The position numbers were made by a program, and so were the translations under genes. The notes under the pieces are model-generated. The model was given only the letters and a program-made list of their open reading frames with translations, did no database searches and was not told the origin of the DNA. Below, one piece after another: positions 541-54,873 of a stretch of DNA of 64,000 nt (the stretch's first letter is position 1; each line of letters starts with the position of its first letter). The DNA comes from an uncultured bacterium (GTDB lineage Bacteria > Omnitrophota > Omnitrophia > Omnitrophales > Aquincolibacteriaceae): positions 104,063 through 168,062 of the forward strand of contig CAYZYT010000004.1 of the NCBI GenBank assembly GCA_964482725.1. The letters run 5' to 3'.

Positions 541-3500
541 ATGAGGGAGAGCTCTATTTTAAAACGAGTGATTAGCCTGGTCGTCGTTGTTTGCTTCCTG
601 ACAACGAACGCGATGGCTATGCCTGGTCAAACCCTGGATGGAGGATGGGGGATGGCGGGTGTAGAAAAAGCAAAAGCCATCTCTGTTCCCTCTGGGCTCG
701 GAAGTGTCGTGGAAACATATGACGCCTCAAAACAGGATGGCGGAAGGCGGAGGGAGGATGGCAACAAACTAAAAACCGAAGCTCCGTCCACCATCCTCCA
801 TCCTTCCCCCAGATTTGTTATTTACATCCAAGACGCGCACGACTCGCTCGAGGCTCAGGAAAATATCGCCGCCATGGTCCGGCACTGCGTGAAGGAATAC
901 GGCGTCAAAACCGTCTACGAAGAAGGTTATGAAGGCCCGGTCCCGACCGACAAGCTCTTTGGATCGATCCAGGATCCGGTTCTTAAGGAAAAGATCTCTT
1001 ACTACCTGATGGACAAGCTCCGCATCGGCGGCGCGGAGTATGCGCATATCAATCGGGCGGCGGAGCCGCCCTCCCGGGAAACGGCTAACGATGAACGGTT
1101 AACGATGCGTTCAGCGTTCCCCGTTCCCCGTTCCCCGGAAAGCGATTTTCAGCTTGTAGGTGCCGATTCGATCAGCCTCCATCTTGAGAACATCCGCGCC
1201 TACGAGCAGGCGGCGAAGAACCGTACAGGCGTGACGCAAGACATTCAGCGTATCCGCAAAGAACTTCAGAAGCTGGCTGACAAGAATTTCCCGAAGGAAA
1301 TGAAAGAATGGTTGAAGCTCAAAGAACGGTATCAGAACGGACAGCTGCCGCTCGTTGAATACTTGGCAAGAACCATGAAAATCCGGGAGACGGATGGAGG
1401 ATGGAGGATGGCGAAGGGCGTAAAGCCAGGTTTGCCGCCATCCGCCATCCACCCTCCGGCCCCCAGCGTTGAAGCCCTCCTCTCCGGTGATCCGAAAGCC
1501 ATCAAACAGATCGATCTGATGAAATTGATCGGGGAGATCCAAGCTCTCGAGAACGAGATCGTTGAGGCAGGTCTCCCGGCAGAAAGGGACCGGAAAACGT
1601 ACGGTTACTTCGAGAGCGTCATGCTCCTTGAAAAACTCAACAAGATCGAGCTCAGCCACGAGGAATTCACGTTCCTCAAAGATTCGCTCGAAGGCCTCAA
1701 GACCGAAGATGTTGCTCGCTTTATCGCGAAGGAAACCGGTCACTCGCTCGTACTTTTCAAGTCTTGGGAAAATCTAATTGCCGATTCGATCCATTTCTAC
1801 GAGCTGGCGAAGAAGCGCGATCAGGCAATCGAGAAAATCCTGACCAAGACTACAGACGAGAGACTAGAGACCAGCGACAAAAAAAGTCTCCTGTCTCCAG
1901 TCTCCGGTCTCGAGTCTCCAAAAACCAAAGCGGATATCTCCGTTTTGGTTTTTGGGGGTTTCCACAAAGAAGCCATCAAGCGGATCCTGAAGGAAAAAGG
2001 CATCAGCTACGTCATTTTGTCACCCTCGATCGGAAATCCCAGCAAGCGGCATGAGGATTATTACCGAATGTTGATGGGCGGGGGGAGGCATTCGTTTGAA
2101 CGAATGCAGGGTATCGGAGGGAGGATGGAGGATGGAGTAAAACAGAAAACAAAAGGTTTCTCGCCCTCCGCCAACCGTGGCGAGAGCGTTTCTCGCCAAA
2201 GCACCCGCGCTCAATCCGTTTTCACGATGAACTACGGTTCCACCGTCGATCTTCTTTCCAAAACCGCCGCGCCATTCCGCAACGAACTTCGGCAGGATTT
2301 TATTTTAAAGATGGACCTCGCTATTCAGGGACGGTTCTTGAATGCCGGGGCTGAGGCCAAAGAACCGTCCCTGGTTGACAATTCTGCCAAACGCTCCGAA
2401 GTGCGGCAAATGTTGCAACAAGGCCCGGCAACCAAGCGCGACGGATTTATTTCCGCAGCCTGGAAAAAGCAGCGGGCGAAGCTCCTGCAAAGCGCCAATT
2501 ACCGGCTGCTGGAATACATGATTCACCAGACCGACCTTTCCGAGCGTCAGAAAAAAGGGTACCTCTATCTTTGGGAAACGATGATGCTTTTGATCCCGCT
2601 CACCAACGGAGTCAAGATCCCCGCAAGCGCTTGGGCGGTGTCTTTGGCGATCGCTCATCCTGCTTTTACGATCCTTCCGGCGATCATTTGGTGCACCTTG
2701 AGTTCGGTCCTTCGCGCCATTTTTGTGATACCGCCTTTCGCTTTTTACTATCGCTTCAGGGTCAGGGAGCTCGTGCTGGCGAACTTTCTTCCGTTCGGCG
2801 CCGCTTTTGTCGCCGTGCCGACGCAGGTGCTTGCGATCATGCGCGAAGAATACAAGCGGTTCGGGGACCTGTCTTTTAAACAGCTGGCGAAGCTTCACGA
2901 GACCGTGATCCGAAAAGTTCTTGAGGAAAATCCCAAGGATGAAGCGCTGCTCGCGCGGACTCCGGAGCTGACTTTCCGGCTGCTCGAATGGCGTTCCCGG
3001 AAGTACGGGGCCGATGCGGCAAAAGCGCTGCTGCTTCCGGCAAGGCTCACGGACCTTCTTCAAGAGGCTGACCCGAGCAAAGCTGCGTTGTCTGCACAAC
3101 GAGCAACGGCGTTAGCGAAAACGGTCATCTTCTTTCCTCCGTCAGGGTTTCACCAGGCCGGCTCAAGGGGGAGCGCTCTTTATGAAAATTCCGCGACCAT
3201 CAAGCGGCTTTACGAGAGAGTCAATCAAAAGGCGCGGGAAATTCTCGGGGATCCTGCCTTCGATATTTTTGACGTTTCCTTCAACCAGACCGAAGAGGAT
3301 TATTTGCGGGGTAACAATGCCGTCGCGGTGCATCTGGCCATTGCAACCCATCACATGGCCTTATGGGAAAGCCTGAAGGAAAAATATCCGGAAGCCGGCC
3401 GGCCCGGAGCGGTTCTTGGCGCGAGCCGGGGAGCGGATGCGGCCTATTATGCGAGCGGAGCGCTCGGCTTGGAAGATACCGTCGAGCTTGCGGTCCGGAA

Positions 3501-6500
3501 CATTCAGTTCTTGAAAAAAGCGTCCGAGCTTTCGGGTTCCCGGAGGATCGGAAGTGTTTCCCGTCTTTCCCGGGAAACATTGGAGGCCCTGCTAGCTCCG
3601 GAAGAAGGCGCGATCGCGGTTCAATATTCGAAAAATCTTTTCGCTGTTTCTTACAGGAAAGACTCTTTCGAAAAACTCGAACAAGATATCAAATCGGCGG
3701 GAGGCGTTCTCAGAAAAACGCTCCTCAGCGTGTCGAGCCATGATCCTCATCTTCTCACGCCGGAAACAAAGCCGCTCTTTGAAGAATACCAAGCGTTCCT
3801 CGAGGGATTTAAAGCGCGCATTCGTCTGCCCTCTCTGAAGCTTTTCTCGGCACTCGAGCCAGGGAAAGAGCTTAAGACGCCCGAAGACATCCTGAGCGAA
3901 GAGGTGCGTTACACCACCCAGGCGATTCCGCTGGACCGCTCTTTCGCCGACCTCTTGCAAGGAGCGGGACTGCAGAATGTTTTGGGGCTCGGCTATGAAA
4001 AGGATTATTTCATCCAGGCCCTTCAAAAGGAAGGGACGGTGTCCGGGGATGTTCGTGTGGCGCAAGCGGCCGACCTCGCGGATTATGGATCTTTTTGGAA
4101 TCTTTTCTCTCGGACAGAAAACGTAGGCGCAGCCGGTACCGTACGCTCCGAAGTGCGGGCCGCCAATGATCCGAAAGATATATTCGAAGGCGAGCCTCGC
4201 CTCTCCGTCGAGAGGCGGGATGGAAATGTTCTTTCAGGGGATGCCCGAACCCTCTCCGGCGGAAGGGTTTTGAGTTGGGATGAGGCCGTGCAGCACGCCC
4301 CGGAACTAGCCCGAAGGGTGGCTCTGAGCGGAGGCTTTGCCGGTTTTTTTACGCATCTTGGCAGAGCCTGGAATGATCCCTACAGGGAAATCGACCCAGC
4401 GATCGTCGAGCGTTATTTTGAAAACGTGCGAGCCTGGGGTCGCAAGGAAAATGGCGTCGTTTTCATTCTTGGCGGAGTTCCGGAAAAAATCGGCGAGCTT
4501 TTTACGCAGGCGGTGGTAATTCATATCCCCAATGTCCCTGACAACGATCCGATCCCGTTGATCGCCGGGAAGGAATCTTTTGATCCCATGGTTGAGCTGA
4601 TGAAAAAGATAGGTGTTCGCGGGATTCTTCCCTATGGCGGAGAGTATGCCCGCTTCGATGAACAAGGGCGGGTGTTACAAGGGTTTGATCCGGGGCTTGG
4701 TTGCGCAGGCGGACCGCTTTTTATTTTGAGCCGCTTTTTTGCTGTTCACGTATACCCTCAACTGCTTTTGGGAGGTTTGATCAATAAGCACTTGGGTGTG
4801 GCGGGTCTTCCACTTGAAACCGGAAAATATCTCACGGAACCCCGCTCGGAAATCCGGAATATCCCAGCAGGTTCGAAGCTTTCGCGACGGGAAGCTTTCC
4901 GGTGGGCGGCCTTATTCGATGAAGAGTTGAGTCAACGGGGACGCGCGCTCGTGTCGGCAGCGACGAAAGAAAAACTTTCCGTGAAGAGGGATACCCTTTT
5001 AGGGGGCGTGAATCGCTACAGCGCTCCGGAGAAAACCGCCATCCTTTCTTTTCGCGACAAGGATTCTCTGGGCCAGATCTATCTTCTTTTTCTGGATCGG
5101 GAAAACCGCCCCGCAGGCTATGGGTCTCTTTACAGCTCCGGAAAGGACAAGCCCGTCGTCGTATCCTTCCACATCTTTTCGGAATTCAGAGGCCGCGGGC
5201 TCGGCGAGGATTTCTGGAATGCGATCAAAAGCTTTCTCAAACAAAACGGCATGGGGTATGTCCCTGAGAAAGTTTACTTCCCGCCCGTTTCATGGTTTGC
5301 GGAGCGCGGTCTGGGGGACGATTTCAAAAATTCAGGCGTCCAGGAATTTCTGGTCAAAATGGGTTTTAAGCCTGTCGGAGTGAAGCCTTCCGCCACGCCC
5401 GGAGATGTGGCCTTTCTTTATAACTTGGGCGATGGGGAAAAGCCTCAGGCCGGAGTCGCGCGAAGTGAGGCCCGGTCTTCAAACGAAAGCCGGGAGCAGC
5501 TGACGGACGCAGGGATGGATCAATACGCCTTTTTTTACTGGAACAATAATAGTCAGTTCGATGCCATCCCGTACACGCTTGAAAAGCCGTTGTGGGAGTG
5601 GAGGGCCGGGGATATTTTTGTTGTCGAAAGCAGAGAAAAAACCGAGACCTATCTGCTTTTGGAGCAAACGGATTTTGGCGTTGTGACCTTTACTTCGCCT
5701 AGGGATTTTGGAGAGCCTGAAAGACGGAATATCCGTGAGTGGAGGATGGACTTTGGGCGAGATCTCGACCGGGGTGCCAGGATCACGGTCCGAAGGTATT
5801 ACGATGCCGGCAAGATCCCGACACTGCTCCATTTTGCGAATGAGGGACGTTTAGAGCCGGACACGCTCCGAGCTTATTACAAGCGGATCATTCTCGGGGT
5901 TTTGATTATCGCCGCGCCTCCGGTTTTGGGGCTGTATATGTTTGGCCTTTTAAAGCCGTGGTTCATCTCGATGGTTTTAGGAGTTCTGGCGCTGGCTCTT
6001 CTGGCGGGTCCCGTTCTTTTCCGATTTAAAGCGGGTAGTTTTATTTTCGATCTTAACCAAGCGCTTCCTTTCCGGATCCCGCCGCCGGGGACGAAACTTT
6101 CCAAGTTTGAATCCTGGAGAATGAATTTCCCGTCCTCTTCCGCCCGATCGGAAGCGCGTCTCTCGCGAGGGACAAGCCCGGAGCCTACGGCCGCCGGAGA
6201 ACAGGCTCTGGGAAAAGGTCCCCGGGAGGCGGAATGGCCCGAAGTCAGCCGCCAGTTCAGATCCCTGAATCCCTACAATATTCACAATATGCCGAGCGCC
6301 GTGCTTTCGGAATTGGCGTCGGAGATAGCGAACAAGTTAAACGTTTATGTTTTTGTCAGGAAAAATCACAGCGGCAAACGATGGATGAGTCAGGTTATGG
6401 AGATTTTGAGTCTGAGGATCGTTTATGACCAGGATATCGAAGTTTACGTGAAAGGTCGCCAGACTCCGGAAGTTTTAAACGCTACGTTGGACCTGGTTGA

Positions 6501-9500
6501 AAGGGCCATGCAGGATTGGAAAATGCTCGAGGAGTCGACGAAGGAAAATCCTCTTTATGACGCCTATCTTCGGGAGATCGACCAGATCGCGCAGGGATCT
6601 GCGACCCGTACTTTGAAAGCAGCTTATCGGACTTTTTCAGATGCGGCGATTAGCCGCGCGATCGATGCGGTGGATTATAACCACGGAGAGATCGATCCTG
6701 CGACGGGGGAAGCCAAACGGGATGAAGTCACGGATGCGGCCTTCCGCCGCTTGGACGCGCTCTATGAGGCCGTGCCTGGAGTGATCACGGTCCCGCGGAG
6801 TGAGTTCATGGGCTTCTTCGGAAAACGCCAGCCGGAATTCGCAGCGAATAAAGACAGGCTCATCAAACCCTTCTCGGCCTTGAGCGACGCAGAAAAAACC
6901 GCGCTTGTTCGGTGGAATGAAATCCGCCGTTCAGAAGCGCGGGATGTCCCGGAAGTGGCGCAGACGCAAGGGAGCCGGGAGGAGCAGGAAGACCGGTTCG
7001 TGAATGAAAAGATCTCGCTTGGTGCGGTTCCGCACGGGGAAGGTAGGCTTCTGGCCGTGATGGATGGACATGGCGGCGATGAGGTCTCGGAAATGTTGCG
7101 GGCGAATCTCGAGCGCGTTTTTAAAGACTCTATGCTCCGGAAAAACGGAGATGTCCAGCAAGCCTTACAAGAAGTTTTTGGTCGCTTACAAAAGATGGCT
7201 GCGGGATCGGAGTCGGGGTCCACGCTTTCGCTGGCCTATGTTCCGGAAGATGAAAAAGCCGCTTATGTCATGATCGTCGGCGATTCTCCGGTTTATGTCC
7301 GGAAGAACGGAAGGCTTATTTCCTTTCCGGAGCACAATCTTTCGAATCCCGTGGAAGTGATCACGCAGCAACAAAGGGCGTCGAGCGCCGGGAAAAAATT
7401 CCGCGTCGATTATGATTTTAAAAGGGAGAATGGAAAGGATCTGCTACGGAAAATCGGAACGACCGAGAATACCAGTCTTGCCATCACGCGCGCCTTCGGG
7501 AATAAATCCTTTCAAGGTCTTCTGATCGGCGAACCTTCCATTCTGAAGACCGATCTGAGCGACGCGCAGGGGCCGGTCGAGGTCCTTCTCGGCACGGATG
7601 GGATCTATGGTTTTCATGGGAATGACTCGAAGATTCAAAGAGACGCGAGGGCTGGCTATCTTCTTTCCAGAGGGACTGATGCGGCGGGGATCGTCCAGTC
7701 GGCCGGCAGCGCAAATGCTTCCGACAATGTAACGGTTCTCCTCTGGAAATTCGATCCCAACACCGTCCGCTCCGAGATGCGGCAGGACATCCATAGTCCT
7801 GCACGCACTGGTGCTGGGACCAGGGAAGTCCCAGCCGAGATGCGGCAGGACATCCATAGTCCTGCACGCACTGGTGCTGGGACCAAGGAAGTCCCAGCCG
7901 AGCTGCGCGGCGCGGAAAAGCCCGATGATCGGGAGTCCTGGACCCGGTTTTTGAATACCTATGCCCCGGCCCTGTCAGGGTTTGGCGGAACTTCCTTGGA
8001 GCAAGTCTGGAGGGAAATTTTCGAAAACACGCCGGAACATGCGCGAATCCTTGATCTGGCGACCGGGAACGGAGCGGTGGCGGGACTGGCCGCCGCCATG
8101 GCCGCGAAATTTTTTGAGGTTTGGGCCATCGATTCCGCCGAGCCCAAGGTCATTCCTCAGGGCGTCAACTTCCGAAAGGCGTCGATGGAGACATTTTCCG
8201 GGACGACGGATATGCCGGCCGATCTGGACCTTGTGACGGGACAATTTGCGATCGAATACGGAGAGACAGACCGGGTTCTCGGAGAAATTCATCGCGCCAT
8301 GAAAGCGGGAGGCAAAGGCGTTTTCATCATCCATCACAAAAACTCGTTCTGGGCGGAGCGGGCGAAATCCCTTTTGGAGCAGACAGACTGGGTGAAGAAG
8401 GCCGGGATCTTTGAAAGGATACGGCAATGGGTTCAAGATCCGTCCGAAGAGAAGCGAGGGCGATTCGAAGCGGTTCTGGACGTGCTCCGATCTGAAATAA
8501 GCAAACGAAGAGCCCAAAAAAGTGAAAATGACGTTCTGTCGAGTATTTTCCGTATCGCAAATACGACCTTTGAGGCGGTCCGGAATGGAAAACTTTCCGG
8601 ATTGGCCGAGCAGATCCAAGAAGTCGAGGAACAGTGGAACAATACGGTCTGGGTGAAGGAGCATATGATCCACGCCGCCTTTGACGGAGAGGCTATGGCC
8701 CGCTTCAAAACGGCGATTGAAGCGCGCGGTTTCCAGGTGGTAGGGATCGAGCCCTGGCAGATCCGGGGAACAATCCGGACGGAAGAGCAGGACCTGCTTG
8801 TCGGCTGGCGCGTCGAGATCCAAAAGCCCGGAATTTTATCTCCGGAAACCCGGCAGGAGAGGGATTGGATCAAGGAAGTCCAGTGGCCGGATCCGGAGGC
8901 GGCGCTTCGAGCGAATGATGGGCCATTCCATATCCCAAGCAAAGAGGATGAGGCGCTACAGATTTTTCTCGACTCCGGAAAGGGGACGCCGGACTATGCG
9001 TTAAACCAAAAAGCGGAATACCTCGGGAAATTATTAAATATCCTCGGAGCGTTGGACAAGACGCGTCTTTGGTGGGGAACCGGAAACGAAGAAAACTGGT
9101 CTGGCTGGGTGAAACATTCTTTCGCGAATTATTTGAACAACCTGCTGGCCCTCGTGGGGTTTTCTTTGCGAAACGAAGATCCTTTGTCGGAACAATCCGC
9201 CAAGGACCTCAAAGAGCAAATAGAATTTGCGGATGCGATATGGAGCGCCCGCAAGGAGCTCGCGGCATCTGTCGCCAACAATTTTAAGAACTACCCCGAA
9301 ATACTTCAGCCGGCTCCGGAGGGCAAAGGTCTCTCAAAGGAAAATACGTTTTCGAGGATCGAACTTAACTTTGCGTTCCCGCACAAAGTGTTTGTCGCAA
9401 GTCCCAATGCTGAGCGGAATCGCGCCATTTATGCGGAGGCCCTCCGCCGCATGGAAGGCCCCTTTCAGGAGATCCTCAAGCTGGCCCGGGAGCAACTTTC

Positions 9501-12500
9501 GGAGTATGAAAAAGGAACTGCCTTGCCCGCGGAACCTAAAAAAGATAAACGCTCCGAGGTTCGTGATCCCCAGGCATTCTTGGAAAACACCGGTCCGGTC
9601 GATGCCGAGCAGTTTGAACGGATGATCCTCGGAAAAAGATTCGATGACCTTGCTCCGGAACAGCGGGCTCGTTTTATCGAGTTTATTCGTTCCAGGAATC
9701 TGCATAATTTGGCGCCTTCTTTACAACGTTTGATCCTCGACCACGTTCAGCGTCACGCCGGTGAAGAGAACGACGAGATGAAAGCTCTCTGGAGCTGCAC
9801 GCTTCGCCTTGAACCGGGCAGCGCGGAGATCTATCGCCAAGAAGTTAGCATCCTCCGGAGTTCCGTGGCGCCGCTTGCAAAAAAAGTGTCTGAAGGGTAC
9901 TCGATCGTGACGGTCGAAGAATCCTCGAAAGGGATCCGGACTCAAACAAATCTCTCGAAAACAAAGACCGAAGATCCTTCTGCGGAGGTTTGGGAATTTC
10001 TGATCCCGGACCAAGTGGAGACCTCGGGCGGTGTTTATACGATCGCGAAACCGGGAACGGACGCCGTGGTGATCGGCTCCGGGGGTTCCGGAAGCGTGGT
10101 CATCCGGGCTCGAAAACAGGACGGTACGCCCGTGGCCATGAAGATCATTAAAGAAGACGGGAAGAGTATGCACCGCTTTTTCCTCGAATACCTGATGACG
10201 CTTCGCTTCAAAGGCGATCCGAACATTATTCAGGTCTATGATTCCGGCCGCTATGTGGTCCAGGCCCAGAGATTTTATTTTATTATGGAAGAATACGGAG
10301 AACGCACGCTTGCCGACGAGGTGCGGGCTCGTTCTAAGAAGCTTGGGGAAGGCGTGGAAATTTTCTCCCCGCCCGAAAGACGTAAGATCGCCAACGAGAT
10401 GATCGACATTCTGCAGACCTTGTACGCCGCGCGGATCCTGCACCGGGACGTCAAAGCTGACAATCTGTTCTATTCGGGAGGACGTTTGAAGCTGGGGGAT
10501 TTCGGGATCGCCCGCTGCTTGCCCCAGGAAAAAGATGAAATAAATTCCGATGCGCTTGAGGGAACACCGACGCATATCCCCGTCGAATCCTTTGCCGGTG
10601 CGAGCGGGTTCTACAACGATCTTTACGAGTTTGCGATGACCATGGCTTTTCTGGATCCCTCGACTCTCGCAGACGATTTCGGCGCGACGACCCGTGGTCA
10701 GATGCGGAGGGTGTCCGTTCCCACCAGCATGTTCACGAAGAACCTCGCCGGCTTGGCCCAAACGGATGCGGCGTACAAAAAATTCTACGAGATGCGGGAA
10801 TTCAGCAAAAAAACCCTGGCCGGAACGCTTGTCAGGCTTGAACGGAGCCAAGATCCATTTACCCAGCTTGTCGTACGACCGATCCTTGACCGGGAACATT
10901 ACCAGGACTCTCCGCGCAATGCACAGGAGCTGGATCAACTGGCCGCCTCTGTTTTTTTTATCGAAAAGACAACAGATCTGATCCGCGAAGGGCAGCCGGC
11001 AGAAGCGCGGAGGTATGTCGCAGCGTTGCTTGGAGAGGGGAGCACGTTCGCTACTTATCCGATCGTTCGGGAAAAAGTCGAAGAACTCCGTCTTGCCGCG
11101 GAAGCAAGTTCAGTTCGTTCCGAGATGAGGAACGGCAAGACCTCAACAAAGCCAGCCATGATCGAGCGGAAGGCCGAGGGAAAAGGAAGGATCTGGATCG
11201 CCGAACTGAAATATCCGAGAAAAATGCTGTCTCTGGGGGTGCGTTATGCCGGGAAAACGCTCAAGCTCTATCCTTATGATGAGGACTGGAAGAAAGGGAC
11301 GCTGATCTTTGACGAAGAAGAGCCGATCGCTGTTTATGTCTCCCAAGAGGATCTTTTTTCCGTGCTTGAAGAGGAGACAACCACCGACGCGAAAGGACGT
11401 TTTATCCGTGAGGGTTTGCGTTATAACCTCGGTGAAAATAAGGCCCATCTAAAGATCAGCCTCCGGCCTTTTGAAACGCCGGACTGGAAGACCGGTGTGA
11501 GGATTTTTGAAGGTCAGGCCGAGATCGCTTATCACGACGCGAAAAGGAACCGCACGGTCAACCTGATCTCCATCGCGCCCTTTAGACGTTCGGGGGCTCG
11601 GGAGGTCGGGACAGCGGACCTCCGGGACGTGCCTCACGTGCACCGGAAAGATCTCTGGAAGACGGGTTTGTATGGGAGCGAAGAGTTAAAGCAGATCCTA
11701 AAAGCCATGCTTGAGTCGGAAGACATTGTTTTCGATGAGCGGAGATATAAGGTTAGCCTTTATGCGCTTCCGGCCGAAGAGCTTGTTGCGCTGATGGATT
11801 ATCTTCGCGCTCAAAGGATCCGCGTTAACGGATATTTATATCGGGAACTTCTTCAAGAACATCAGGAAGACATGGCCCGGTATATCGAAAAGACGAGAGC
11901 CGCGGGTAGCGATCTGAAATATCTCGGTGCCCCTGCCTACCAGTTGTATGCCGATCTTTTGCCAGCCGCCGAAGAAGTGAACCCGAGCCTTTATGTTGAT
12001 AGCCAGCCGCCCCGATATCACGACGACGTCTTCAGCTCTCTAAAAAAAGAATACAGGGCACAGCTTCAAGAGATCCGGCGGCAGGGAGACAAGATCGGAC
12101 TGGCGGTTCACGGAGTGCGCGAGTGGAAATGGCGCGACATGTCCGGGCAAAGCCGGGACCGGGAGATCGGCATGGATGACGGCAAAATGAGATTTTTGAA
12201 CGTGCTCTTGGAGGGCAGGATCCGGAATTTTACGATGCCCTTCTCTTTTTCCAAGCTGAAGGTGGATGTCGGTTATCTGGATACGGAACACGACACGAAT
12301 TTCAGCGACCGGGGAGATGCCGGGACCTATGGCCCTTACTATATCCTTCTGGACCCGAGGTGGAGGCATGACGCGCAGGGAGGCATCGGCGAAGAGCACC
12401 ATAAATATTATCTTGTGCCGAATGACTCGATGCGAAAGTTCCTGACCGGCGGGCTCGAACAGGCTCTTGCGGGCGGGCTGATCGATCCGGAGCGGTTGGA

Positions 12501-15500
12501 GGTTTTGAAAAGCAAGATCATGACCTATCGCGAGTATGCCGACATCCTCTCCGGGCGCGGCGCAGCGAGCCGGGCGGAATTGCGGGAAGAGAAGGCTCCG
12601 AACCGTGAACGAAAAATGGAAAAAATCCGGCAGCGTCCCTCGAGGCGTTCAGACGGGAAAGAAAGTAAATGGGATGTCTTTGACCGGTTCGTGCAGAAGG
12701 TGAACCTTCTTAATTTTGAAGAGGTCAAGCAAACGGAAGAGCTTAAGAGCTTGAGCAAAAAGCGGGAGCTTCTTGTAAGTTTTGGGATCCCGGAGGCTGC
12801 GGAAGTCGAAGCAAAATATCTCATAGGCGCGATCGGCAAGCTATTCAAGAAAATGCAAGCCGAAGGGGCGGGCCGCCAGCAACCTATTATTTGGACGGAT
12901 TTTTTAAGCTACGGCGGGCAGGGGCGATATCTGACGGCTTACAAGGATGAAAATCCCGAAGGCGGTTGGATCGTCAAGGTCGCGGCCAGCGAAGAAAGCA
13001 GCCGGTACATGGATCTCTATTCTCTGGAGGGGACGCGTCTGGCTCTAGAGCGCCTCGGCGGCGGTCTCGCAGCCAGCACGATGATCATCGACGGGAGAAA
13101 GAACGGAAAGGATTTCTTTTTCCGGTCGGGAAAGCGTGCGATGTATGAAAGCGTCGCGATCGTTCAGGAAAAGTTGTTACCCCTCGTGGAATATTTGAAG
13201 CAGGTCGGTCGGCGCGGCGCCTCGGACCGGGAAGTTTCTGAGGCGATCGGGTACATGGAAAAATACAAACAGCTTGCGATCGCGATGTACCGGCGGGGCA
13301 TTGTGGATGCGGACAATTTTAACGTGGTCGGCAACTATGGTATCCGGCCCTCGGACAAAAGCCTCGCTATTTTTGATCTCGGCGATCTTACCGACAGCTT
13401 AAGGAGCGCACAATCCTTTGTCGCGGAACTGGACAGCTTTAATGAGGATAGGGCGGATGATTCCGCCGAGATCGACGGGGTCCTGCTGGATCCGAAAGTC
13501 TCTCGGGCGTTTACGGACAACCCCTTCCGGACAGAGGATTTTGTTCTTCATGGCAAGGATCTGTTCGGTTCGGAATTCGATCCCAAAAAACATGGCATGA
13601 CCTTTCCGTTATCGGAAGACGAGGTCCGTCGCATGTTCCTGGGGAGTTCGATCCGGGAGCCCTCTCAAGACCGTCGCTCAGAAATTCGAATTTCTGGAGC
13701 GAACAAAAAGCTAGCGCGAAAGGAAGACCGTCGCGCTGAACTGCGCGATGCAGAGACCTGGAGAGGGCGCGGGGCCGAATCGCCGCTCCGGCTGGAGAAG
13801 GTGACATTATTAAATGAACTGGCAGCAAAAGTCCCCGAAGGGACGAAACGTACTTTCAGAGCGCTGGCCAATGCTTCCGGCGGCCGTTACTCCTATTCCG
13901 CGATCCGCGGCATAGCTGTGTATTATGCGATCACTCCGGAAGAGGGAGGTTTTGAGCCGGAAGAAATATGGACAAGAAAAGAGTGGGTTGAAAATCTCCC
14001 GAAGGGAGCCCGCGCGCTGAGTAGGGGGCAAAGGCCTACTGCCGAAAACATTTCAGCCGCGTTAAAGGAAAAATTCGGCATCGTTAGATCGCCTGCCCAG
14101 ATCCGCGAAGCCCTATCTTTTCATAAGATCACTTATCGAGAAGTCGAAATGGTTCGCGATCTCAGCATTGATCCAAGAAACGATGACGCATGGAAGGAGT
14201 TTTTTAAAAGGCATGTCCAAACTCTAGGGCCCGGGCTTCACGCTGTTTCGGAGCTCGCAGAAAAACTTTCGTCAGTCGCGGCGAATAAAAAACTCGAGGC
14301 GGGGTTTATCGGGATCGGCGCAAGCCAGATCGAAAGGATCATGATCTTACACCGTCTTTCTTACGAAGAACTGGGTCTGAAGAAGGTCAGGCCTGCTCCG
14401 AAAACGCAGGACGAATGGATTTTGCTGGTCCGAGAACTGGTCGACAAAATCCCGGCGGGAGTAAAAAAGACGCTTGGCAATGCAGCTCAGGCGTCCGGGG
14501 GTCTATTCACTTACAGCCGGCTCTATCACGCCATGAGCGACCATGATATTTCGTACAACGAGGTCGGACTTGAAACGCCTCGGAGACAACCTCGCCGGTC
14601 GCGCGCCGACTGGCTGGCTTACTTCAAGGAATTGGCGGCGGCTATTCCGGAAGGTTTCCGTAAGGTGCTCGGCAACGCCGCGGAATTTTCCGAAGGCGCT
14701 GTGACGTTTTCTCAACTTCTCAAGGCCAAAGTGAATCATGGATTCTCTTACGAAGAGATCGGGCTGGAGCGTTTTTACCAGATCCTGGGCCTGGTTCCGG
14801 AATCGGTGGATTGGCAGATCCAGACAAGTTATGAAAAAGGCCGCAGCGGAAAAGGGCGATGGGAAACGGTGAGGACTAAGGCCGTCGGACCTCGCATACT
14901 CGGTCCCGACGAAGAAGCTTCCCGCCAGGAACGAATGGACCACCTCGAAAAAACGATCGTCCTTTTAGGCTCTGACGCCGGGAAAATGATCGATCAGGTG
15001 CTGGATGCCTTGGCTCAGGGCGCGAGCATGGACAATCTTTCCGATCTATCGGAAAAAAGCGACGTTGATCCGCAGGCGCTTCGAGAAATGATGGGTCGTC
15101 TCCGGAAAATCTACCACCGGCTTGTTGCCGGCCAACCGATCCCTCAGGAGTGGATCGGTGAAAGTGAAACCCAAGATTACCCCACAGGTGCACCTACGGG
15201 GTTGTCTCAGGGAGTTCTTTCGAGGTCCGAAGTGCGGAATGGGCAGGCGTTGAAAATGTGGGGAGCCTGGAAAACGAAAGAAGAAGCGTTGATCGATCTG
15301 GAGCTTAAAAAATCGCAGGCGATGCTCGCGATGCATCCGTGGAGCTTCCTCGCCTTGCTTAACGGGAAAGAGAATCCGAGGCTTTCGGGTGAGATCGGAG
15401 AGCTTTTGAACCGTTGTTTTGAGATGCTGGCGTGGGCGGTTGGGCAATTTCACGGCCAGCCGGTCGAGGTGCTTCAAATGGAAGAGGCCCGGAAGCTGGA

Positions 15501-18500
15501 AAGCGCGGCCCGGCAGTACCGTGTTCTTCTTGAGGTCTTGCACGGGCTCGACAAAGGGAAGCTCCCGTTCGACAAAATTGTCAGCCAGAACGACTTTGAA
15601 ACCGTCCGGCAATACACTTTTTCAGACAACGGAACCCTGTATCCGGTCCGCGTCATCTGCCGGTGGGAATCCGCCGAAGCAAAAGAGGCAAGGCTTGCCG
15701 TGAATGTCCTTTTGCCGCTGGGGTCCTCTTCTGAGGAGGACATCGCCCGGCACAAGAAGGGGCCCGGGCTTCCGCCGCTTTCCGACAGGCAAATGATCTC
15801 TCTGCGGATCGATTGGAGCAATAGGACCGAACGGGCGGAAATGGATATTTCCGGAGGTTCAAACGAAAAACTTCCTTTTGCGCGTAGGCATTGGGTCCTG
15901 AACGACTTGTCCCGACAGGCGACTTTCAGGAACTTTGTTCTTGGGATGGACCAAAAGCTCGCGAAGCTTTCCTCGGCTTCTGCGCCCGTTCCATCTGAAA
16001 AACATCGTTCTGAGATGAGGGAAGTCTTTAAGCTTGGGGGCGAGTTCACGCGCGAGACGATGGAGCGGATGATCCGCGAGCTGGCCGGACAACAGAAAGT
16101 CGATTTTGAGACGGAGGAGGGCGACAGGTTCACCGTCCATTACACTTTTCAGGATCAAGGCTATCAACAGGGCTGGTACCAGCCTTTCCGCGCCGAAGGT
16201 GAACGTTTCCGGCTCCTACTGACCCGGCATGTTGGCGCGAGCGAAGATCAGGTTGCTTTTGCGAATGCCAAACTTGTCGAACGGGACGGGAAGAAAGTCG
16301 CTGTCATGGATCATGGGTTCGGGAAAGAAGAGATCCTGAAGGGAAAGAGCATTTTAATGGATCGGGAAGTCGTCGCTTTGCAGACCGAGGACCGGTATGT
16401 TGGGTTGTTCAAAGGGATCGGGACGGCGATGATGCAACTCGCATGCGGCGTGGCACGAGCCCATGGGGCGGATGTGCTTTACGCCGAATCCATTGCTAGC
16501 AAGGAATTGGAATCCTTTTATGTTCAGGCCGGCGGTGTCATGGAAGATTATCAGGCGGTTTTTGAGGTTATGGATTCCTCCGAGGACGGGAACGCTGCTT
16601 CTACTTATTTCAGCACGAGACAACGCGCAAAATTCGATTTAAAAAGCCTTCCTCAGCTGGAACGTTTCCAGATTGAGAAGATTAGTTCCGACGCAAAACT
16701 TTCCGGGCACCGCGTACTCGCCTTATCCGACGAGGTGCAGAAGCATAATCCAAGCCCTGCGGATCTCCCAAGCAATTTTGAGATGAATCGTTCGGAAGTG
16801 CGGGGGAAGAATATTAATCGGAAAATTGTTGTTGCGATGACGCCGGAAGCGGAAAAACGTGCCCGGCGACTCCAGCAAGCGCTTAAACTTTTGGCGACGA
16901 CGTATCCTGAAGGTGTGACTTATGAGCTTGTTGCCAAAACCATGAACGAGCTTCCCAGGGATCCGGAACCTTCTCTTTCGTGGTATGCGCTCGCGAAATG
17001 GACCGAAGCCCATCCGGACCTTCCTTCGGTCGTTTTATTGAGAAAAATGCAGCGGGCTTCTTCGGCGCTCCAGGACGCGCTGAGCGATCTTGTAAAGCGA
17101 CCCGCAAAACAGAATTGGACCCCAGATCTTAAAAAGCTCCGGCACGACCTTCTTGGGAAAGCCCTGGAGTTGAACCTCCACGGAGCTTTTGTTTTTCATC
17201 CCTACACGGACGAGCGATACGTTTGGCGCGTCCTGGGATTCATGGAAGATGGGTGGAAAGCGGTATTTGAGGACATTCAAAGCAAAGAGGGCCAACTCTT
17301 GATCACGCTGCGTCTTGAAAAAGAAGGCGAGGAAGTTTTCCTGAGAACCTTTGCTGTAGGAAAAGAGAAACGGGCTTTGCTGGGCGTGCTCGGCAAAAAA
17401 GGTCAGCCGACAAAACAAGCCCTGGATATTCTGCCGCTGGAAGACAAGACCATTTATGGAGAAGAGAAAAAAGCCTACCGCATTCTTTCGGAACTTGTCG
17501 GCAGGCCGGAAGGTTACGCCTGGCAGGCGGATGAAGATAAATTAAACGATTTGATCGGGGAGGAGCTCGGCGAAGTTTCTCCACGAGGTGTTTCGAGCTT
17601 TTCGCCAGCCAAGTATTTCGCCTACCGGTGGTTTCTTTTGGGAACGCGTGAAGCGGGATGGAGCGCCAGGATCATGGAGGCGGGGATCCGGAGCGCCGCG
17701 CCTGTTTTTAAAGTTAAATTTTACAGAGAGGACGGGAAAAAAGAAGCTTTCGAAAAGGAATATCAACTAGGGCCTAAGCGGAAAGATCTGAAATATACCG
17801 GCCCCCGGAAAAACACGGCGCCTCTTTCCATTTGGGACATCGTGCCATTGAATGATGCGGGAGTTTTTGCGCCGGAACGACCCGCCCAAGAAAAAATAAC
17901 GGAAGCGCTCGCGGCCCTTCTGGCGGAAGGTGCGGTGGTCTCGCAGGCATTACTTGCCGAAAAAGCGGATGTTGGGGAGAACACCGTTGTCCGCATCAAA
18001 AAAGAAAACGCGGTTCTCGGGAAAAAGATCGATGAAGCCGTAGCGACCTCGCTTTATAAGAAGATCGAAGCTTTTCTCAAAGATCATCCCGGGGCCAAGC
18101 AAAAAGATATTGCGGAAGCGATCGGCGTGAGCCCGAGTGCGATCGTCTACTATAAGAGCACGAATGAAGAAATCCGCAAATTGATCGAAGTGAATCAGCC
18201 GGTTCAGGATAAAAAAGCTCTCTCGCCAGGAAAGGGGTCTCAGACGAAGGAAACAAGATCTGCCCCAAAGACAGAAGCACCGCGGAAAGAAAAAAAGATC
18301 CCTCAGCCCAGAGTTTCCCCCGCGCAAGACAAGCCCGCCATTCCCGAGGAGAAACCTGAAGAGGGAAAAGCGGCAAAACCCACGGAACTCAAGGGTGTCA
18401 CCGCCGTTCCCGAGATCCAAACGTACGCCATGCTTGATGAGGGGATTGTGACGCTTTTTGAAAGACGGTACGCTCCGATTTTGGAAGAACTTTCGGACCA

Positions 18501-21500
18501 GGCGGTGGATGAACCTTCGGAAACGGTCGAAAAAAGCGAAGCGCTTCTCGGGCGGCTGGATCTTGTTTTGAAAAATTTTGAAAAGTCTTCTCCGACGCTG
18601 TTGGGGAGGCTGAAAAATATACGGGGCAAATTGGAGAGCATTCAGTCTCTGGCCCGCGTGAACGATGATGCGGGTTTTGATGGCTCCGAGGGCGAATCGC
18701 GCGACCCGTCCCGTTCGGAAGTTCGGACCGCGCCGGATCTAACAATAAAGGCAGAGGACAGAACGCGCTTCCTGAAAAAGAATCGCGGGAAAGACCTGAA
18801 CGAGATGGTGAAAAGCATGATCCGGGACGCAACACGGTACTCCGAAGAAGGCGCGGCGCGGGTTCTTTATGCGGAGCCGAAGGAGCCTGTTTTTATTCCT
18901 GAAAAATATGATGCTTATCTTGGCTACAGTGCTTTGGATACGGCGCTTTGGGAAATTTTCGGGAATGCGCTTAAATATTCTCCCAAAGAAAAACCGATCC
19001 GGATCGCGCTTGAAAGGGAACCCGGGCACATTCTCTTGAAGGTCTCAGATTCAGGCATTGGGATATCCGCTGAAGAAATGAAACATGCCGGGACAGTAGG
19101 TTGGCGCGGAGAGCGGGCCCAGGCCTATTTCAAACTTGGCGCCGGAAGAGGGATCGCTCAGACAAAAGAGATCATCGAAAGGATCTACGGCGGTTCGGTA
19201 ACGATTGAAAGCCCCGGGGAAAACCAAGGGACGATCGTTACCATAACGCTCCCTCTGAGCGATTCAGCGGGACGGGCAAAGTTGGATTCAGACAAGCTCC
19301 GCTACAAAGACACAGCGGACTTTATGGCCCGACACAGCGTGATAGAGAAGGGCGTGGTCTATACGGTTCGGGATATTCTCGACCGGGAGTTGCCATCCGC
19401 GGTTTATGCGCTTGAAAAGGTCCAGGAATTACGCCGGCGAATGGACGCATCCGGTAAGCGAGAAACGCCGCTTATCCTTTGGCAGAATATGAGCTTGGGG
19501 CAGTTCTTTCCTTATTTTAGCGAAACCGTTAAAACGGAGCTGGGAGTCTTGGAGCTGTCCGAAGATGTTTCGAAATGGCAAGCCCAGATCGCGGATCTTC
19601 AGCCGGGCAAAAGCCGCTTCATTCTGATCAAACAAAAAATAGCTTCGAGCTTCCCGGGGGAGAATAAAGATTACGCGAATTATCCGGAAGAGGAGTGGGA
19701 CCCGTCGGTGGAGACTTGGGGGGCGAAGGAAATAGAGAGGATCGCCAAGACTTTGCGCGCTCCCGTTGTGATGGTGGATCATACGGGGAAGGAATTCTCA
19801 AACGGACAAAGGCTCTTGGCGGAGCACGCGCAGCGAAGCGGAATTAAAACGCATTGGATGAATAGCCGCTTGAGCGAGGACCTTGGGAAGGATAAAGATC
19901 TTTGGAGCTCGGACAGTCTCCTCGTGCTGCTCAATGCGAATGCAGATCCAGAGAGAAAGAAATCCTTATTCGATGATAGTGAGAATTTTTCAAAAACCCG
20001 GCGGATCCTCTCGGGGATCATTAACGGAGAAAAGATAAACTTCGTCGACGCACTTATGGAGGCCTATGCGGCCGCTACGCTCCAGGCTCAAGAAGCTCGT
20101 CGCTCGGAAATGCGTTTGCCCGCGAGCGGGGGGAGAAAATCCTCCGGAGCGGTGACTTTTCTCAAGAAAAAGGAAGTCCCGGGAGTCGTTACGGCAGTTT
20201 CTTTCGAAGGAAAACCGTATGCGCTGTCCGCGATCGGGACGATGCTGCAGATCCGGGATCAATTCAATTTTGGCATTCTTCTTTTCAAGCTGATTCCCGA
20301 ACGCCAGCGCAATGCCTTTATCGCTTCTTTGCCGCGGGAGACTCAGGAAAGGGTTCAAGCCTACCGTCGCGCACCCGCGGCCGGCGCTACACGGCTTATG
20401 GTCGAGGTCCTCAAAAACGAGGATTTTACGGCGCAGATCAAAGCCAATGCGGCGGTCCAGATTGGGATCGGGCAGGACCTAGCTACGAGTGTCGTGAGGT
20501 TCGAGGTCGAACAAGTCTCAGATGAAAAAGCCGTTTTCAGGATCTTTCTCGGGGAAGTGCCGGTCGAATATGACGTCAGCCTCGGGAAAACCTACATGGT
20601 GGCCCGGGAGAAGGTTTTGGAGGAGCCGCTCGATGCCGCCGAACTTTTTACTGTGTCGTCCGATGTCCTTTCCGCGGGCAAGCACTTTTCTTTCCGGATG
20701 TTCCTGAAAGATAATGCGACCTGGATCCATATGGTTGATTATAAGTCTACGAACGGAACGGTTCTTTGGGCGGAGGTTTATCCGAAGAAAGTGGATTATC
20801 CGAGGCGCAAACAGGACCGGGCGATCTGCGAGAAAGAAATTCGAAAAATGCTGGAGGACTTTTCGGACAAAATGCGGGCCGATGGCCTCGCGACGGACCC
20901 GGAGACGAAAGATGTGAAGTACCAGGAGGCCTTAAACGAGGCGGCCTCGCTCTATATCGAGAGTTCCAAGTTTCACGAACTGGAAGAGCTGAGGAAAAAA
21001 TTGATCGAGAACTACTTTTTTTCCAATACCAGCTCTTCTCTCGGGGCTTCGACGAGGAGCCAGTACGCCCTTGAAACGCTGGAATCTTTACTGGAGGATG
21101 ACCGGATCTCGGTTTGGGAGCCCATCCTCGAGGCGGCTGTTAAATACGTCCGGTACTTTGTTCATCTGGTCCGTCTTCTCAAAACCGAAAAGCTCAAGCT
21201 CGCCCCGTCTAAGCTCCAGTACGAGATGGTGCGCGCTCTTTCCAAAATAAACGGGAAGGAAACAGAGGTCCCGGAAGCGTCCAAATTCAACAAAGAGATC
21301 TTCGGCAAAACCCTCCGCATCGACACCTTGCCGAGGTCTGAAGCCCGGACTTCCCGAACCCCGGATCAGACCCCGGCTCTAAACCCCGGGTCTGCGGCGG
21401 GTGCGAAGCGGGAAGAATCTGGACAAAGTGTTCGCAACGCCCTGGTCGTGCGGGACCGGATCGAGAAACTCACGGGCGCCGGGACGATCCTGATGAGTCG

Positions 21501-21984: not shown

Positions 21985-21985
21985 C

Positions 21986-22157
21986 ACGTACGGCGTACGG
22001 AGTACGGCGAATAGAAAACATCTTGCATAACGCCTTACCCCGTACGCGATGCGTTCTGTGATATCCCTTAACAACATCAGGGAAATAGCGTACACTTCTC
22101 GAGCTTTTAACAACAAAGGAGGAATTCGCTCATCGCCGTACTCCGTACGCCGTACAT
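21986..22157. repeat. 25-bp near-perfect inverted repeat (24/25 match) flanking a 122-bp core, between the giant gene and ychF.
   Basis: Left arm cacgtacggcgtacggagtacggcg (21986-22010). Right arm cgccgtactccgtacgccgtacatg (22133-22157). Each arm contains a GTACGG triplet in direct repeat. The core contains ttaacaaca twice and an AAGGAGG. Confidence 0.7.
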
Positions 22158-22171
22158 GAGCGAAAGCGAAT

Positions 22172-27911: not shown

Positions 27912-28598
27912 ATGAAACACAATCCTTTCTACTCTATCTATCGCGACTTTAAGGCCTGCTTCGAGCGTGATCCGGCTGCCCGGACGCCATTTGGTGCGCT
28001 CGAGGTCATTTTTCTCTATGCCGGTCTTCATGCCGTTCTTTTCTACCGATTCGCGCATGTCCTCTATAGAGTAGGGATTCCTTTCATCCCCAGGCTCATT
28101 TCCCAGATCGCCCGGTTTCTGACCGGGGTGGAGATCCATCCGGGAGCTAAGATCGCTCCTGGATTTTTTATTGATCACGGGATGGGCGTGGTGATCGGTG
28201 AGACGACAGAGATCGGCGAGAATGTGACGATCTATCAGGGCGTAACGCTCGGGGGGACGGGGAAAGAGCGCGGCAAACGCCATCCCACACTTGGTCATAA
28301 CGTGGTGGTGGGCGTGGGTGCCAAGGTCCTCGGAAATATCAAGATCGGGGACCATGTGAAGATCGGAGGAGGATCGGTCGTGATCCACTCAGTGCCGGAT
28401 CATTGCACTGTGGTCGGCGTTCCGGCCGAGATCGTTCGCATTGACGGTCAAAAAGTTGAAGAGGTCGATCTTGAGCACGGCGATCTGCCGGACCCTGTAA
28501 GAGAGCTCAAGAATCGCGTTCGTGAACTTCAAAAAGAAGTCGAATCCCTTGAAGCGCATCATAAAGGGCAAAATCTTAAAAAGCCGGGAAACGGATAA
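27912..28598 (+). CDS. cysE: Serine O-acetyltransferase.
   Basis: Hexapeptide-repeat core [38 protein letters not shown] and an N-terminal SATase helix domain. Confidence 0.85.
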
Positions 28599-52467: not shown

Positions 52468-52468
52468 G

Positions 52469-53158: not shown

Positions 53159-53222
53159 AAGGTTTTAAGCGTGTGGATTTTACCATAACGAGAGGTCCCA
53201 AGGGGAGGACATCCTTGGTTCA

Positions 53223-54847: not shown

Positions 54848-54873
54848 GCAGCCGAGCAAAAGTGTTTGGCCTT

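Follow-up and report, generated by a model that had tools for sequence, protein, structure and literature searches.

A single stop-free open reading frame (ORF) of about 21.4 kb (nucleotides 541..21984, plus strand), encoding 7,147 amino acids (aa), is present in a 64,000-nucleotide (nt) stretch of the genome of an uncultured Omnitrophota bacterium (contig CAYZYT010000004.1, positions 104,063 to 168,062). This whole stretch is called the window here. The giant protein is a chain of distinct modules, or cassettes, between two constant ends, and a short peptide, RSExR, stands at every boundary between them. The reading preferred here is that the locus encodes a polyprotein-like, membrane-anchored cassette array which is processed at this motif. 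The cleavage is something that we infer, and the reading is held with about as much doubt as confidence.

Membrane-anchored giants of the Omnitrophota that are tiled by enzyme domains have been described in two preprints (West-Roberts et al. 2023, 10.1101/2023.11.21.568195; 10.64898/2026.06.07.730766), which name methyltransferase, HATPase_c, GNAT, HAD, NUDIX and Ser/Thr phosphatase domains. Their genes count among the largest known. The former preprint leaves it explicitly open whether and where the proteins are cut, and states that the cleavage points are unknown, processing being suspected but unproven (10.1101/2023.11.21.568195). In the searched text of the two, there is no mention of constant terminal modules, cleavage points, cassette exchange, cysteine depletion or a junction motif. 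Literature searches with the motif strings, and with Omnitrophota together with polyprotein, found nothing relevant, their coverage being incomplete and an earlier description possible. The protein of the window has the phylum, the membrane anchoring and the tiling by unrelated enzyme domains in common with the published giants; its 7,147 aa, like the 1,883-7,989 aa of the relatives found, lie under the study thresholds of at least 10 or at least 30 thousand amino acids, which are operational and not biological. The locus is apparently a smaller member of these multi-enzyme giants, with a testable organising principle that has so far gone undescribed.

A pentapeptide delimiter in the giant proteins

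The giant ORF was cut at each RSExR, and the pieces were scanned against Pfam. The 16 copies of the motif give 17 modules, or 20 segments when three copies of RAELR are also counted. From the composition of the protein, 0.24 copies of RSExR would be expected; for the combined form, R[SA]ExR, the count is 19 against an expected 0.58. The combined motif is likewise found in nine related giants, in 5-24 copies where 0.13-0.70 are expected, an enrichment of 20- to 50-fold (e.g., 24 vs 0.47 and 22 vs 0.43). Non-giant proteins of the same and sister genomes, 27,321 aa in all, have no copy, and a single one turns up in 353,884 aa of ORFs at 77 unrelated loci. No other gene of the window carries it in frame; two copies, at 24622 and 28702, were dismissed because neither is in the reading frame of a real gene. 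A strict delimiter of the form R-[S/A]-E-hydrophobic-R appears to be previously undescribed. The same goes for cassettes equal to whole proteins, for constant ends around a shuffled order of cassettes, for the linker swap of a C-terminal module in a close relative and for the cysteine depletion.

When 135 junctions from ten proteins are drawn as a logo, only five positions are informative, namely R, then S (107 copies) or A (28), then E, then L, A, M, I or V, and finally R. The codons used for these residues are varied (CGC, CGT, CGA or AGG; TCC, TCG, TCA, TCT or AGT; GAA or GAG), and the flanking DNA is not conserved. Thus, it is the peptide that is under selection and not a DNA repeat, and a DNA repeat or recombination site was rejected as the nature of the delimiter because of the synonymous variation. 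Two other candidates were also rejected. The motif is not an internal translation start, as the codons at position 4 include GCN and GTT, and it is not a phosphorylation site, as 21% of the copies have Ala at position 2. The choice of Ser or Ala at this position (107:28) rather fits a small-residue subsite than an obligatory phospho-acceptor. Position 4 has a preference by lineage: it is mostly Leu in the related protein P0012 (14 of its 16 motifs), mostly Ile in P0004 and mostly Ala in P0003 and P0008. Such a pattern is compatible with co-evolution with a recognition partner.

Around the motif, T, P, N and S are enriched while I, Y, H, L and V are depleted. Three linkers were modelled with AlphaFold, two of them flanking module 16 with the motif and one closing module 1 on its C-terminal side, and the pLDDT falls below 50 in all three; from these models, the motif-bearing linkers are probably disordered. 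Short spacers of 17-50 aa separate tandem motifs in the giant family. One such mini-spacer of 63 nt is duplicated in tandem in the window (Table 1), where it forms a hairpin (DNA fold z=-2.7), and the same mini-spacer is present in the giants of the loci L005 and L083.

Constant ends and a variable middle

When the last two modules were used as queries in an exhaustive HMMER search, 14 proteins were returned, most of them 1,400-8,000 aa long. Together with the syntenic ORFs in L003, L005 and L083, these are taken as the family. A word-indexed search with the C-terminal module gave a fragment only, the index under-sampling the giant family. In the independent assemblies L003, L005 and L083, the homologous giant ORFs bear the motif and sit upstream of ychF, as in the window.

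The members share one architecture, in which a constant membrane-anchored N-terminal module is followed by about 15-22 variable cassettes and a constant C-terminal module of about 190 aa. The N-terminal module is kept in P0004 (60% identity), P0008 and P0010, and its conserved patches read IQDAHDS, YEEGYEG and VFGGFH. It has no match in Pfam, NCBIfam or PDB, and its AlphaFold model is of low confidence (pLDDT 51). That it might be a hydrolase of the TraB/TIKI/ChaN type was a supposition of ours, for which Pfam, NCBIfam and PDB sequence searches gave no support.

The C-terminal module is found in P0003, P0004, P0008, P0010, P0012 and P0013 and in the giants of L003, L005 and L083. The motif always precedes it and it always ends in [VI][VF]A[WRF][AS]A, and it has no match in Pfam or PDB. 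In P0013, the motif occurs together with this module although the number of cassettes is zero. P0013 is a genuine small protein, with an upstream stop within its contig, in which only a hydrophobic anchor and an acidic linker precede RSEVR and the C-terminal module. This make-up indicates that the motif is functionally tied to the constant C-terminal module. As a separate observation, the last six codons of the gene in the window (nt 21964-21981) encode the same type of carboxy-terminal tail as is kept in P0003, P0004, P0008, P0010, P0012, P0013 and P0015. This tail looks akin to the non-polar, Ala-Ala-ending tails that tail-specific protease and ClpX recognise (ssrA-like).

The cassettes of the family have a median size of 278 aa (interquartile range 200-429). 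In the giant of the window, PP2C, Pkinase, HATPase_c, GNAT and HPr families score above the Pfam cut-offs; methyltransferase, acyltransferase and helix-turn-helix (HTH) families remain below them, and around nine modules are orphans with no family in Pfam or NCBIfam. Distinct enzyme families thus tile the polypeptide, and no single one dominates. The cassettes of sister genomes include NUDIX, HD, Fic, HAD, Endonuclease_NS, penicillin-binding protein (PBP) and methyltransferase types.

The giant proteins are also poor in cysteine. It makes up 0.14% of the residues here vs 0.90% in 28 neighbouring proteins, a depletion of about six-fold; the values in the relatives are 0-0.37%, and P0012 has no Cys in 7,989 aa. 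The only other protein of the window with the same depletion (0.15%) is the BACON protein encoded at 23757-27758, after ychF.

Cassettes as complete proteins exchanged at the linkers

The cassettes are complete, autonomous proteins that have been reshuffled, and exchanged at the linkers between relatives. The best database match of the kinase cassette is P0016, a free-standing protein of 456 aa in an ordinary gene neighbourhood. Its Met1 aligns with residue 27 of the cassette, which has 522 residues, and its end falls at about residue 493; the cassette thus amounts to a complete protein with two linkers of about 26-29 aa. Similarly, residues 1-277 of 280 are matched by the PP2C cassettes of P0004, P0008 and P0012, which keep the motif at both boundaries while the linker has diverged. 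Some orphan parts recur as well: the first 166 aa of module 10 are common to P0004, and the C-terminal half of module 8 to the L005 and L083 giants (both by BLAST). For module 10, a word-indexed database search found no homolog, the index being one that under-samples the giant family.

The order of the cassettes is not fixed. The most widespread of them, the FHA-like module 16, is present in eight relatives at varying positions, and it lies at aa 6521 here, whereas relatives have it at aa 1870, 1810 and 2445. Almost no internal cassettes are common to sister genomes whose YchF proteins are 89-93% identical. An exchange can be followed by comparing the locus L084 with the window, as the two have YchF proteins of 99% aa identity and flanks of about 88% nucleotide identity. 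The alignment (L084 1-800 vs window 21299-22172) ends at nt 21393, about 45 nt past the last motif, and resumes at nt 22168. The C-terminal module of L084 cannot be aligned at the DNA level and is of the alternative VFARAA type, vs VVAWAA here; the two types are spread irrespective of YchF similarity.

Two sequence elements lie near this region. The linker element DQTPALNPGSAAG (window 21349-21393) is found right after motifs and recurs with 69-75% identity in P0003, at aa ~5174-5197 and 5542-5567; it may supply DNA homology for cassette exchange. The perfect 20-nt inverted repeat GTACGGCGTACGGAGTACGG (21988-22007 / 22136-22155) encloses about 130 nt between the giant gene and ychF. It might be what is left of a mobile element, or else mark a structured RNA or a recombination boundary. 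The right breakpoint of the L084 swap (~22168) lies just past it.

Proposed processing at the delimiter

In the proposed mechanism, the giant chain would be made as a single precursor inserted in the membrane. The pentapeptide would serve as the recognition site of a dedicated endopeptidase, encoded elsewhere and probably specific for Arg, with a small residue at P1'. This enzyme would set the cassettes free as individual proteins whose stoichiometry is fixed, which would make the chain a bacterial polyprotein. The kinase, PP2C and FHA cassettes would in that case form an ordinary toolkit for Ser/Thr phospho-signalling and work in trans, either among themselves or on further targets; they would be items of cargo and not a dedicated fused regulatory device.

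What speaks for processing is a uniform motif which stands in a linker at every boundary between autonomous proteins. The low model confidence of the linkers, the small residue at position 2 and the spacers between tandem motifs are also counted for endoproteolytic release. Another argument comes from P0008, where a DNA/RNA non-specific endonuclease cassette (aa 1120-1390; Endonuclease_NS E=6e-47) has a signal-peptide-like segment immediately after RSEMR. No transmembrane (TM) helix returns the chain behind this cassette, and such an arrangement agrees better with release than with a chain that stays uncut.

A number of points weigh against this proposal. The census of the motif family covers ten proteins. 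No protease was recognised in the giant protein or in the rest of the window by Pfam, NCBIfam and PDB sequence searches, about nine modules being orphans and two having been modelled, and a comparison of nine diverse members of the constant C-terminal module shows neither an invariant nucleophile nor an invariant His. The parity of the TM helices fits an uncut membrane-anchored chain in which the cofactor-dependent enzymes are all cytoplasmic. In P0004, a periplasmic penicillin-binding cassette is followed by a 'return' TM helix, which shows that the topology is managed in cis. One RAELR lies within the conserved terminal helix of the C-terminal module, and so not every copy of the motif need be a site. 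Lastly, the lineage-specific residues at position 4 could also stem from concerted evolution.

Two candidates for the protease were tried and rejected. The C-terminal module has neither a family or PDB match nor an invariant residue of catalytic type. A conserved Cys was considered as the marker of a cysteine protease, and the sole one conserved between homologs sits in the LOG-like module 3.

A delimiter which is exclusive to the giants and marks 135 junctions is useful in several ways. It allows the giants to be split informatically for structure prediction, it predicts exact neo-termini for proteomics, and it gives a handle for a protease search by phylogenetic profiling. Should the cleavage be true, the array would be a cellular counterpart of viral polyproteins and a mechanism to co-express whole proteins and rapidly exchange them as cassettes.

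Uncut chain or exported array as possible alternatives

The alternative that survives best, considered possible but on the whole rather improbable, is a membrane-anchored megaprotein that is never cut and co-localises its enzymes at the inner membrane. The pentapeptide would then be a docking motif or a flexible joint, and its docking partner could be the constant C-terminal module, a chaperone or an assembly factor. The preprint of 2026 reads the Omnitrophota multi-enzyme giants in this way, as membrane-anchored with cytoplasmic enzymes (10.64898/2026.06.07.730766). The parity of the TM helices lets all cassettes that depend on ATP, S-adenosylmethionine (SAM) or acetyl-CoA be cytoplasmic, the return helix behind the PBP cassette of P0004 agrees with it, and so do the negative protease searches. 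The pairing of motif and C-terminal module in P0013, which has no cassettes, would fit an interaction between the two. However, the cassettes are complete and autonomous, with no conserved order or partners, and the benefit of holding them in a fixed chain is hard to see. A docking motif would not have to stand at each and every boundary. In P0008, moreover, an uncut chain would put SAM- and ATP-dependent cassettes outside the cell, as the endonuclease has no return helix.

A further alternative, quite unlikely in our estimate, takes the chain as an exported multi-effector array directed at prey or a host, with a MARTX-like logic in which the cassettes are separated at the motif after delivery. 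Candidates for such delivery would be the Cys-poor kinase, phosphatase, acetyltransferase and methyltransferase cassettes here, and Fic, nuclease, NUDIX and HD cassettes in relatives. The main points in its favour are the low Cys content and the toxin-like cargo of relatives. It would account for the Cys depletion of the giant and its relatives, shared in the window only by the adjacent BACON protein with its signal peptide. Effector- or toxin-type cargo (Endonuclease_NS, Fic, PP2C, kinase) is present, and the very fast turnover of cassettes between near-identical strains is what would be expected of arms-race loci. Omnitrophota are also described as predatory or host-dependent. On the other side, no secretion-system signal or translocation domain was recognised, and several internal TM helices favour retention in the membrane of the producer. 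The relatives carry housekeeping-like cassettes (PBP transglycosylase/transpeptidase, HAD, LOG-like), and the Cys depletion may have other causes. A compound proposal would combine this array with processing. The motif would be the processing signal of the Omnitrophota giants, dozens of unrelated whole proteins would sit as cassettes between the constant anchor and the constant C-terminal module and be recombined between strains at their linkers, the protease would be Arg-specific, and the Cys-poor products would be meant for export or prey, so that the locus would be a multi-effector array in rapid evolution. As a whole, this proposal is judged unlikely.

The phospho-signalling cassettes

A first-pass annotation of this DNA had claimed that a PP2C phosphatase, a Hanks-type kinase and a GHKL ATPase of the RsbW type are co-encoded in one ORF, each bracketed by RSExR, as a fused self-regulating signalling cassette or else as a polyprotein precursor. 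The presence of the three enzymes is confirmed by Pfam (E values in Table 1), as is their bracketing (motif starts at 6928/7768, 9550/11116 and 18712/20101); the HATPase_c domain ends at nt 19260, exactly where the annotated region had ended. Degenerate catalytic residues were looked for in all three, and the signatures look intact instead. The PP2C module keeps EDRF, DGHGG, GDS, TDG and DNVT, with its four metal-binding Asp motifs conserved, and these motifs are likewise kept in the homologous cassettes of three relatives, although P0012 also has a second, divergent PP2C-like copy from which several have disappeared. In the kinase, aligned to the TTK and PknB structures, the G-loop, VAMK, HRDVKADN and DFG are all in place; the position of the alpha-C Glu is ambiguous. 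The ATPase keeps its N, G1 and G2 boxes. These enzymes are probably functional, and it may well be that one acts on another.

The RsbW-like character of the ATPase did not hold. The domain matches HATPase_c at 1.8e-17 vs 1.1e-3 for HATPase_c_2, which is below the cut-off, and all 19 of its 19 PDB matches are catalytic and ATP-binding (CA) domains of sensor kinases or phytochromes, the best being HK853 and WalK. The dimerisation and histidine phosphotransfer (DHp) part is not found, as the alignment to HK853 begins past the DHp helices, HisKA gives no match, and the 73 residues upstream have no H-box. By its sequence, then, the module is an orphan histidine-kinase-type ATP-binding domain and not an RsbW-like Ser-kinase. 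The phosphatase is of the eukaryote-like PF00481 type, and no SpoIIE-type family is listed among its matches.

Substrate modules had been suggested for the unassigned stretches, and this was borne out in part: an FHA-type module is found in 20101-21333, but sequence searches of the 17 segments gave no STAS domain at E<=0.1. The FHA assignment of module 16 comes from its profile, which matches the three FHA repeats of P0014 with an hhalign probability of 97.1% (E=5e-11); those repeats themselves match PF00498 at 4.1e-21. The AlphaFold model (pLDDT 72) has a beta-sandwich of 11 strands. Of the FHA signature, the Arg, the His and the Asn-Gly-Thr are present, and the canonical phosphate-binding Ser is displaced by one position. 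Fold searches with the module did not independently confirm FHA. The HPr-like domain in 6145-6927 is marginal (PF00381, 25.7 bits vs a cut-off of 23), and its alignment to HPr structures reaches only E ~0.2. The context of His15 is kept (IHNMPS, for I-H-x-x-P); in the place of Ser46 stands a Gln, which a Ser directly precedes. The window has no partner genes of the phosphotransferase system (PTS).

As for the fused device, it would be a partner-switching system in which the PP2C and a GHKL Ser-kinase oppose each other on one phospho-Ser substrate and the Hanks kinase supplies a further input; this is held to be very improbable. The three enzyme types are indeed present and look catalytically competent, and the FHA-type and HPr-like modules are in the same chain. 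In some Firmicutes and Mollicutes, HPr(Ser-P) is a substrate of PP2C phosphatases, which can be counted in its favour. But the GHKL domain is of the histidine-kinase CA type and not of the RsbW/SpoIIAB type, no STAS domain was found at the above threshold, unrelated cassettes lie between the three modules, and the Ser of the canonical FHA and the equivalent of HPr Ser46 are each off by one position. The relatives give a similar picture. An unfiltered search of 12 related giants at E<=1 gave no counterpart of the kinase or the ATPase cassette, whereas the PP2C recurs in three (P0004, P0008 and P0012, without the other two enzymes), the FHA-like module in eight and the HPr-like module in one (P0003); PP2C and the FHA-like module come together in P0008 only. 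The trio is thus an idiosyncratic cargo combination and not a conserved co-evolving unit, and the absence of co-occurrence largely refutes a conserved partner-switching system. The self-regulating cassette of the first-pass annotation is therefore not borne out. The occurrence of a kinase and a phosphatase in one chain is a matter of assorted cargo here, and not of a new regulatory device. Its polyprotein precursor fared better: the anatomy fits, with motifs in linkers and whole-protein cassettes, one of which equals the product of a free-standing gene, while the cleavage is the part that we infer.

That the giant gene is an assembly chimera, or its motif the footprint of a DNA repeat or recombination site, is hardly credible, since in-frame palindromic DNA elements in module 1, the 63-nt tandem spacer and exchange breakpoints close to the motif are outweighed by 21.4 kb without a stop, by synonymous variation that includes AGG vs CGN and AGT vs TCN, and by homologous giants in at least four independent assemblies. 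Two further sequencing runs yielded short-read contigs that span the 3' end of the giant gene and match the window at 100% identity there, and with the independent homologous giants they establish that the ORF is real and not an assembly artefact.

Comparison with known systems

In picornaviruses (3C), potyviruses (NIa) and flaviviruses (NS2B-NS3), proteins are concatenated in one ORF and have short uniform sites in flexible linkers. The giant protein is alike in its complete proteins and its uniform linker motif, and the basic P1 and small P1' of flaviviruses resemble the R followed by S or A. In contrast, the giant gene is chromosomal and lies beside housekeeping genes, has no recognisable protease in cis and carries cassettes that vary strongly between close relatives, and its cleavage is putative.

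MARTX toxins have constant ends and interchangeable central effector domains, which are reassorted among strains by recombination and set free when the linkers are cut. They also have glycine-rich repeats and an inositol-hexakisphosphate-activated cysteine protease that cuts after Leu, and they leave the cell by type I secretion. Constant terminal regions and an interchangeable central array are common to both. The glycine-rich repeats and the cysteine protease domain are not found in the giant, which instead has a signal/TM anchor and internal TM helices.

Hanks kinases, PP2C phosphatases and FHA proteins are known as partners from mycobacteria (PknB-PstP-FhaA/FhaB) and Pseudomonas (PpkA-PppA-Fha1), where they are separate genes in a conserved operon. 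The giant ORF also links these three types of component; however, it holds them as cassettes that are not next to one another, relatives do not conserve the combination, and the FHA Ser is displaced by one residue. With RsbU/RsbV/RsbW and SpoIIE/SpoIIAA/SpoIIAB, the giant shares the co-encoding of a PP2C-fold phosphatase and a GHKL-fold ATPase. It differs from them in having a GHKL domain of the CA type and a PP2C of PF00481, and no STAS antagonist was found in it.

Module map of the giant ORF

The modules and motif copies are collected in Table 1. Hydropathy gives an N-terminal anchor and two TM clusters, and there is no excess of internal promoter- or terminator-like sites within the ORF. 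Several weaker resemblances may be added to the table. The Acyl_transf_1 match in module 2 (E=1.7e-5) and the Methyltransf_23/25/11 matches in module 8 (E=6e-4 to 4e-3) are under the curated cut-offs, and module 11 weakly matches the N-terminal HTH of IS630 transposase (E=2.4e-5), far under the cut-off. By eye only, the motifs of module 3 look like those of LOG/lysine-decarboxylase proteins, and module 13 has a GNAT-like Q/R-x-x-G-x-G/A patch. C1388 of module 3 is one of the few Cys in the giant protein, and it is kept in the L003 homolog.

Table 1. Modules of the giant protein and copies of its delimiter, in window coordinates
Feature	Position (nt)	Strand	Description
Module 1, constant N-terminal module	541..2391	+	Signal/TM anchor aa 3-29 (nt 547-627); orphan alpha/beta plus helical domain
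Module 2	2392..4143	+	TM helices aa 698-767 (nt 2632-2841); weak acyltransferase-like region nt 3178-3747
Module 3, orphan	4144..4842	+	Homolog in L003 giant
Module 4, GNAT acetyltransferase	4843..5460	+	Domain nt 5056-5253; PF00583 E=1.5e-4, 22.5 bits (cut-off 20.7)
Module 5, orphan	5461..6144	+	TM hairpin aa 1780-1831 (nt 5878-6033)
Module 6, HPr-like with C-terminal extension	6145..6927	+	Domain nt 6247-6501; PF00381 E=1.2e-5
Module 7, PP2C phosphatase	6928..7767	+	Domain nt 6958-7608; PF00481 E=3.8e-16
Module 8	7768..9549	+	Class I methyltransferase-like nt 8014-8367 (weak); orphan C-terminal half
Module 9, Hanks-type Ser/Thr kinase	9550..11115	+	Catalytic domain nt 10069-10641 with N- and C-terminal extensions; PF00069 E=1.5e-23
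Module 10, orphan	11116..13674	+	Interrupted by RAELR nt 12571-12585
Module 11	13675..15222	+	About five tandem HTH-like repeats ending SYEE[IL]GL, seen by eye; RAELR nt 13732-13746
Modules 12 and 13, orphans	15223..16788 (boundary 16006)	+	No family matches
Module 14, orphan	16789..18711	+	Weak HTH matches (HTH_24 E=1.8e-3, under cut-off); Lys/Pro/Glu-rich low-complexity tail
Module 15, GHKL ATPase, histidine-kinase CA type	18712..20100	+	Domain nt 18931-19260; PF02518 E=1.8e-17; orphan 270-aa C-terminal part
Module 16, FHA-type	20101..21333	+	Small alpha/beta head; beta-sandwich ~nt 20392-20796; helical-repeat tail
Module 17, constant C-terminal module, orphan, ~190 aa	21334..21981	+	Conserved tail VVAWAA; RAELR nt 21919-21933
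RSExR, first eight of 16 (15 nt each)	Starts 2392, 4144, 4843, 5461, 6145, 6928, 7768, 9550	+	
RSExR, last eight of 16	Starts 11116, 13675, 15223, 16006, 16789, 18712, 20101, 21334	+	Span of all copies 2392..21348
Tandem 63-nt duplication	7765..7890	+	RSEMR-QDIHSPARTGAGTREVP-AEMR-QDIHSPARTGAGTKEVP-AELR; motif + 16-aa spacer; 94% identity

Genomic context

The YchF protein encoded beside the giant gene is 89-93% identical to those of Candidatus Omnitrophota metagenome-assembled genomes, the next best being at about 62%. Sequence of this bacterium is also present in the runs SRR12261224 and SRR12261227. The remainder of the window is an ordinary bacterial chromosome with ychF, cysE, rnhA, pepA, rsmB, trmJ, pyrE, mutY, a suhB-like gene and acnA, along with a rluD-like gene and genes for citrate synthase and aldehyde dehydrogenase. 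No Rfam family is found in the 64-kb window.

The gene after ychF (23757-27758), already mentioned for its low Cys content, encodes a protein of 1,333 aa with a signal peptide, MSP/BACON/Ig-like domains and a long coiled-coil tail rich in Lys and Glu. Further along, a compact phosphate-regulon cluster occupies 50683-62089. It comprises phoR and phoB (minus strand), a Porin_5 porin, pstS, probable pstC/pstA, pstB, phoU, a PhoU_div (DUF47) protein and a PHO4-family transporter.

Finally, palindromic hairpins of the form (GGATGGN)n are found in frame within module 1 of the giant gene, at 636-661, 729-816, 1379-1470 and 2103-2177, and also at the cysE/rnhA junction (28580-28670). The repeat has 14 matches vs 0.26 expected, with DNA fold z values of -2.5 to -5.4. 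Within module 1, the palindromes are translated as DGGWRMEDG..KQKTKG..PS..HP. In the P0004 ortholog, other peptides (RDSSLV...) stand at the same loops and, judged by eye, may be encoded by palindromes too. In being inserted in frame into a gene, these elements resemble the Rickettsia palindromic elements.

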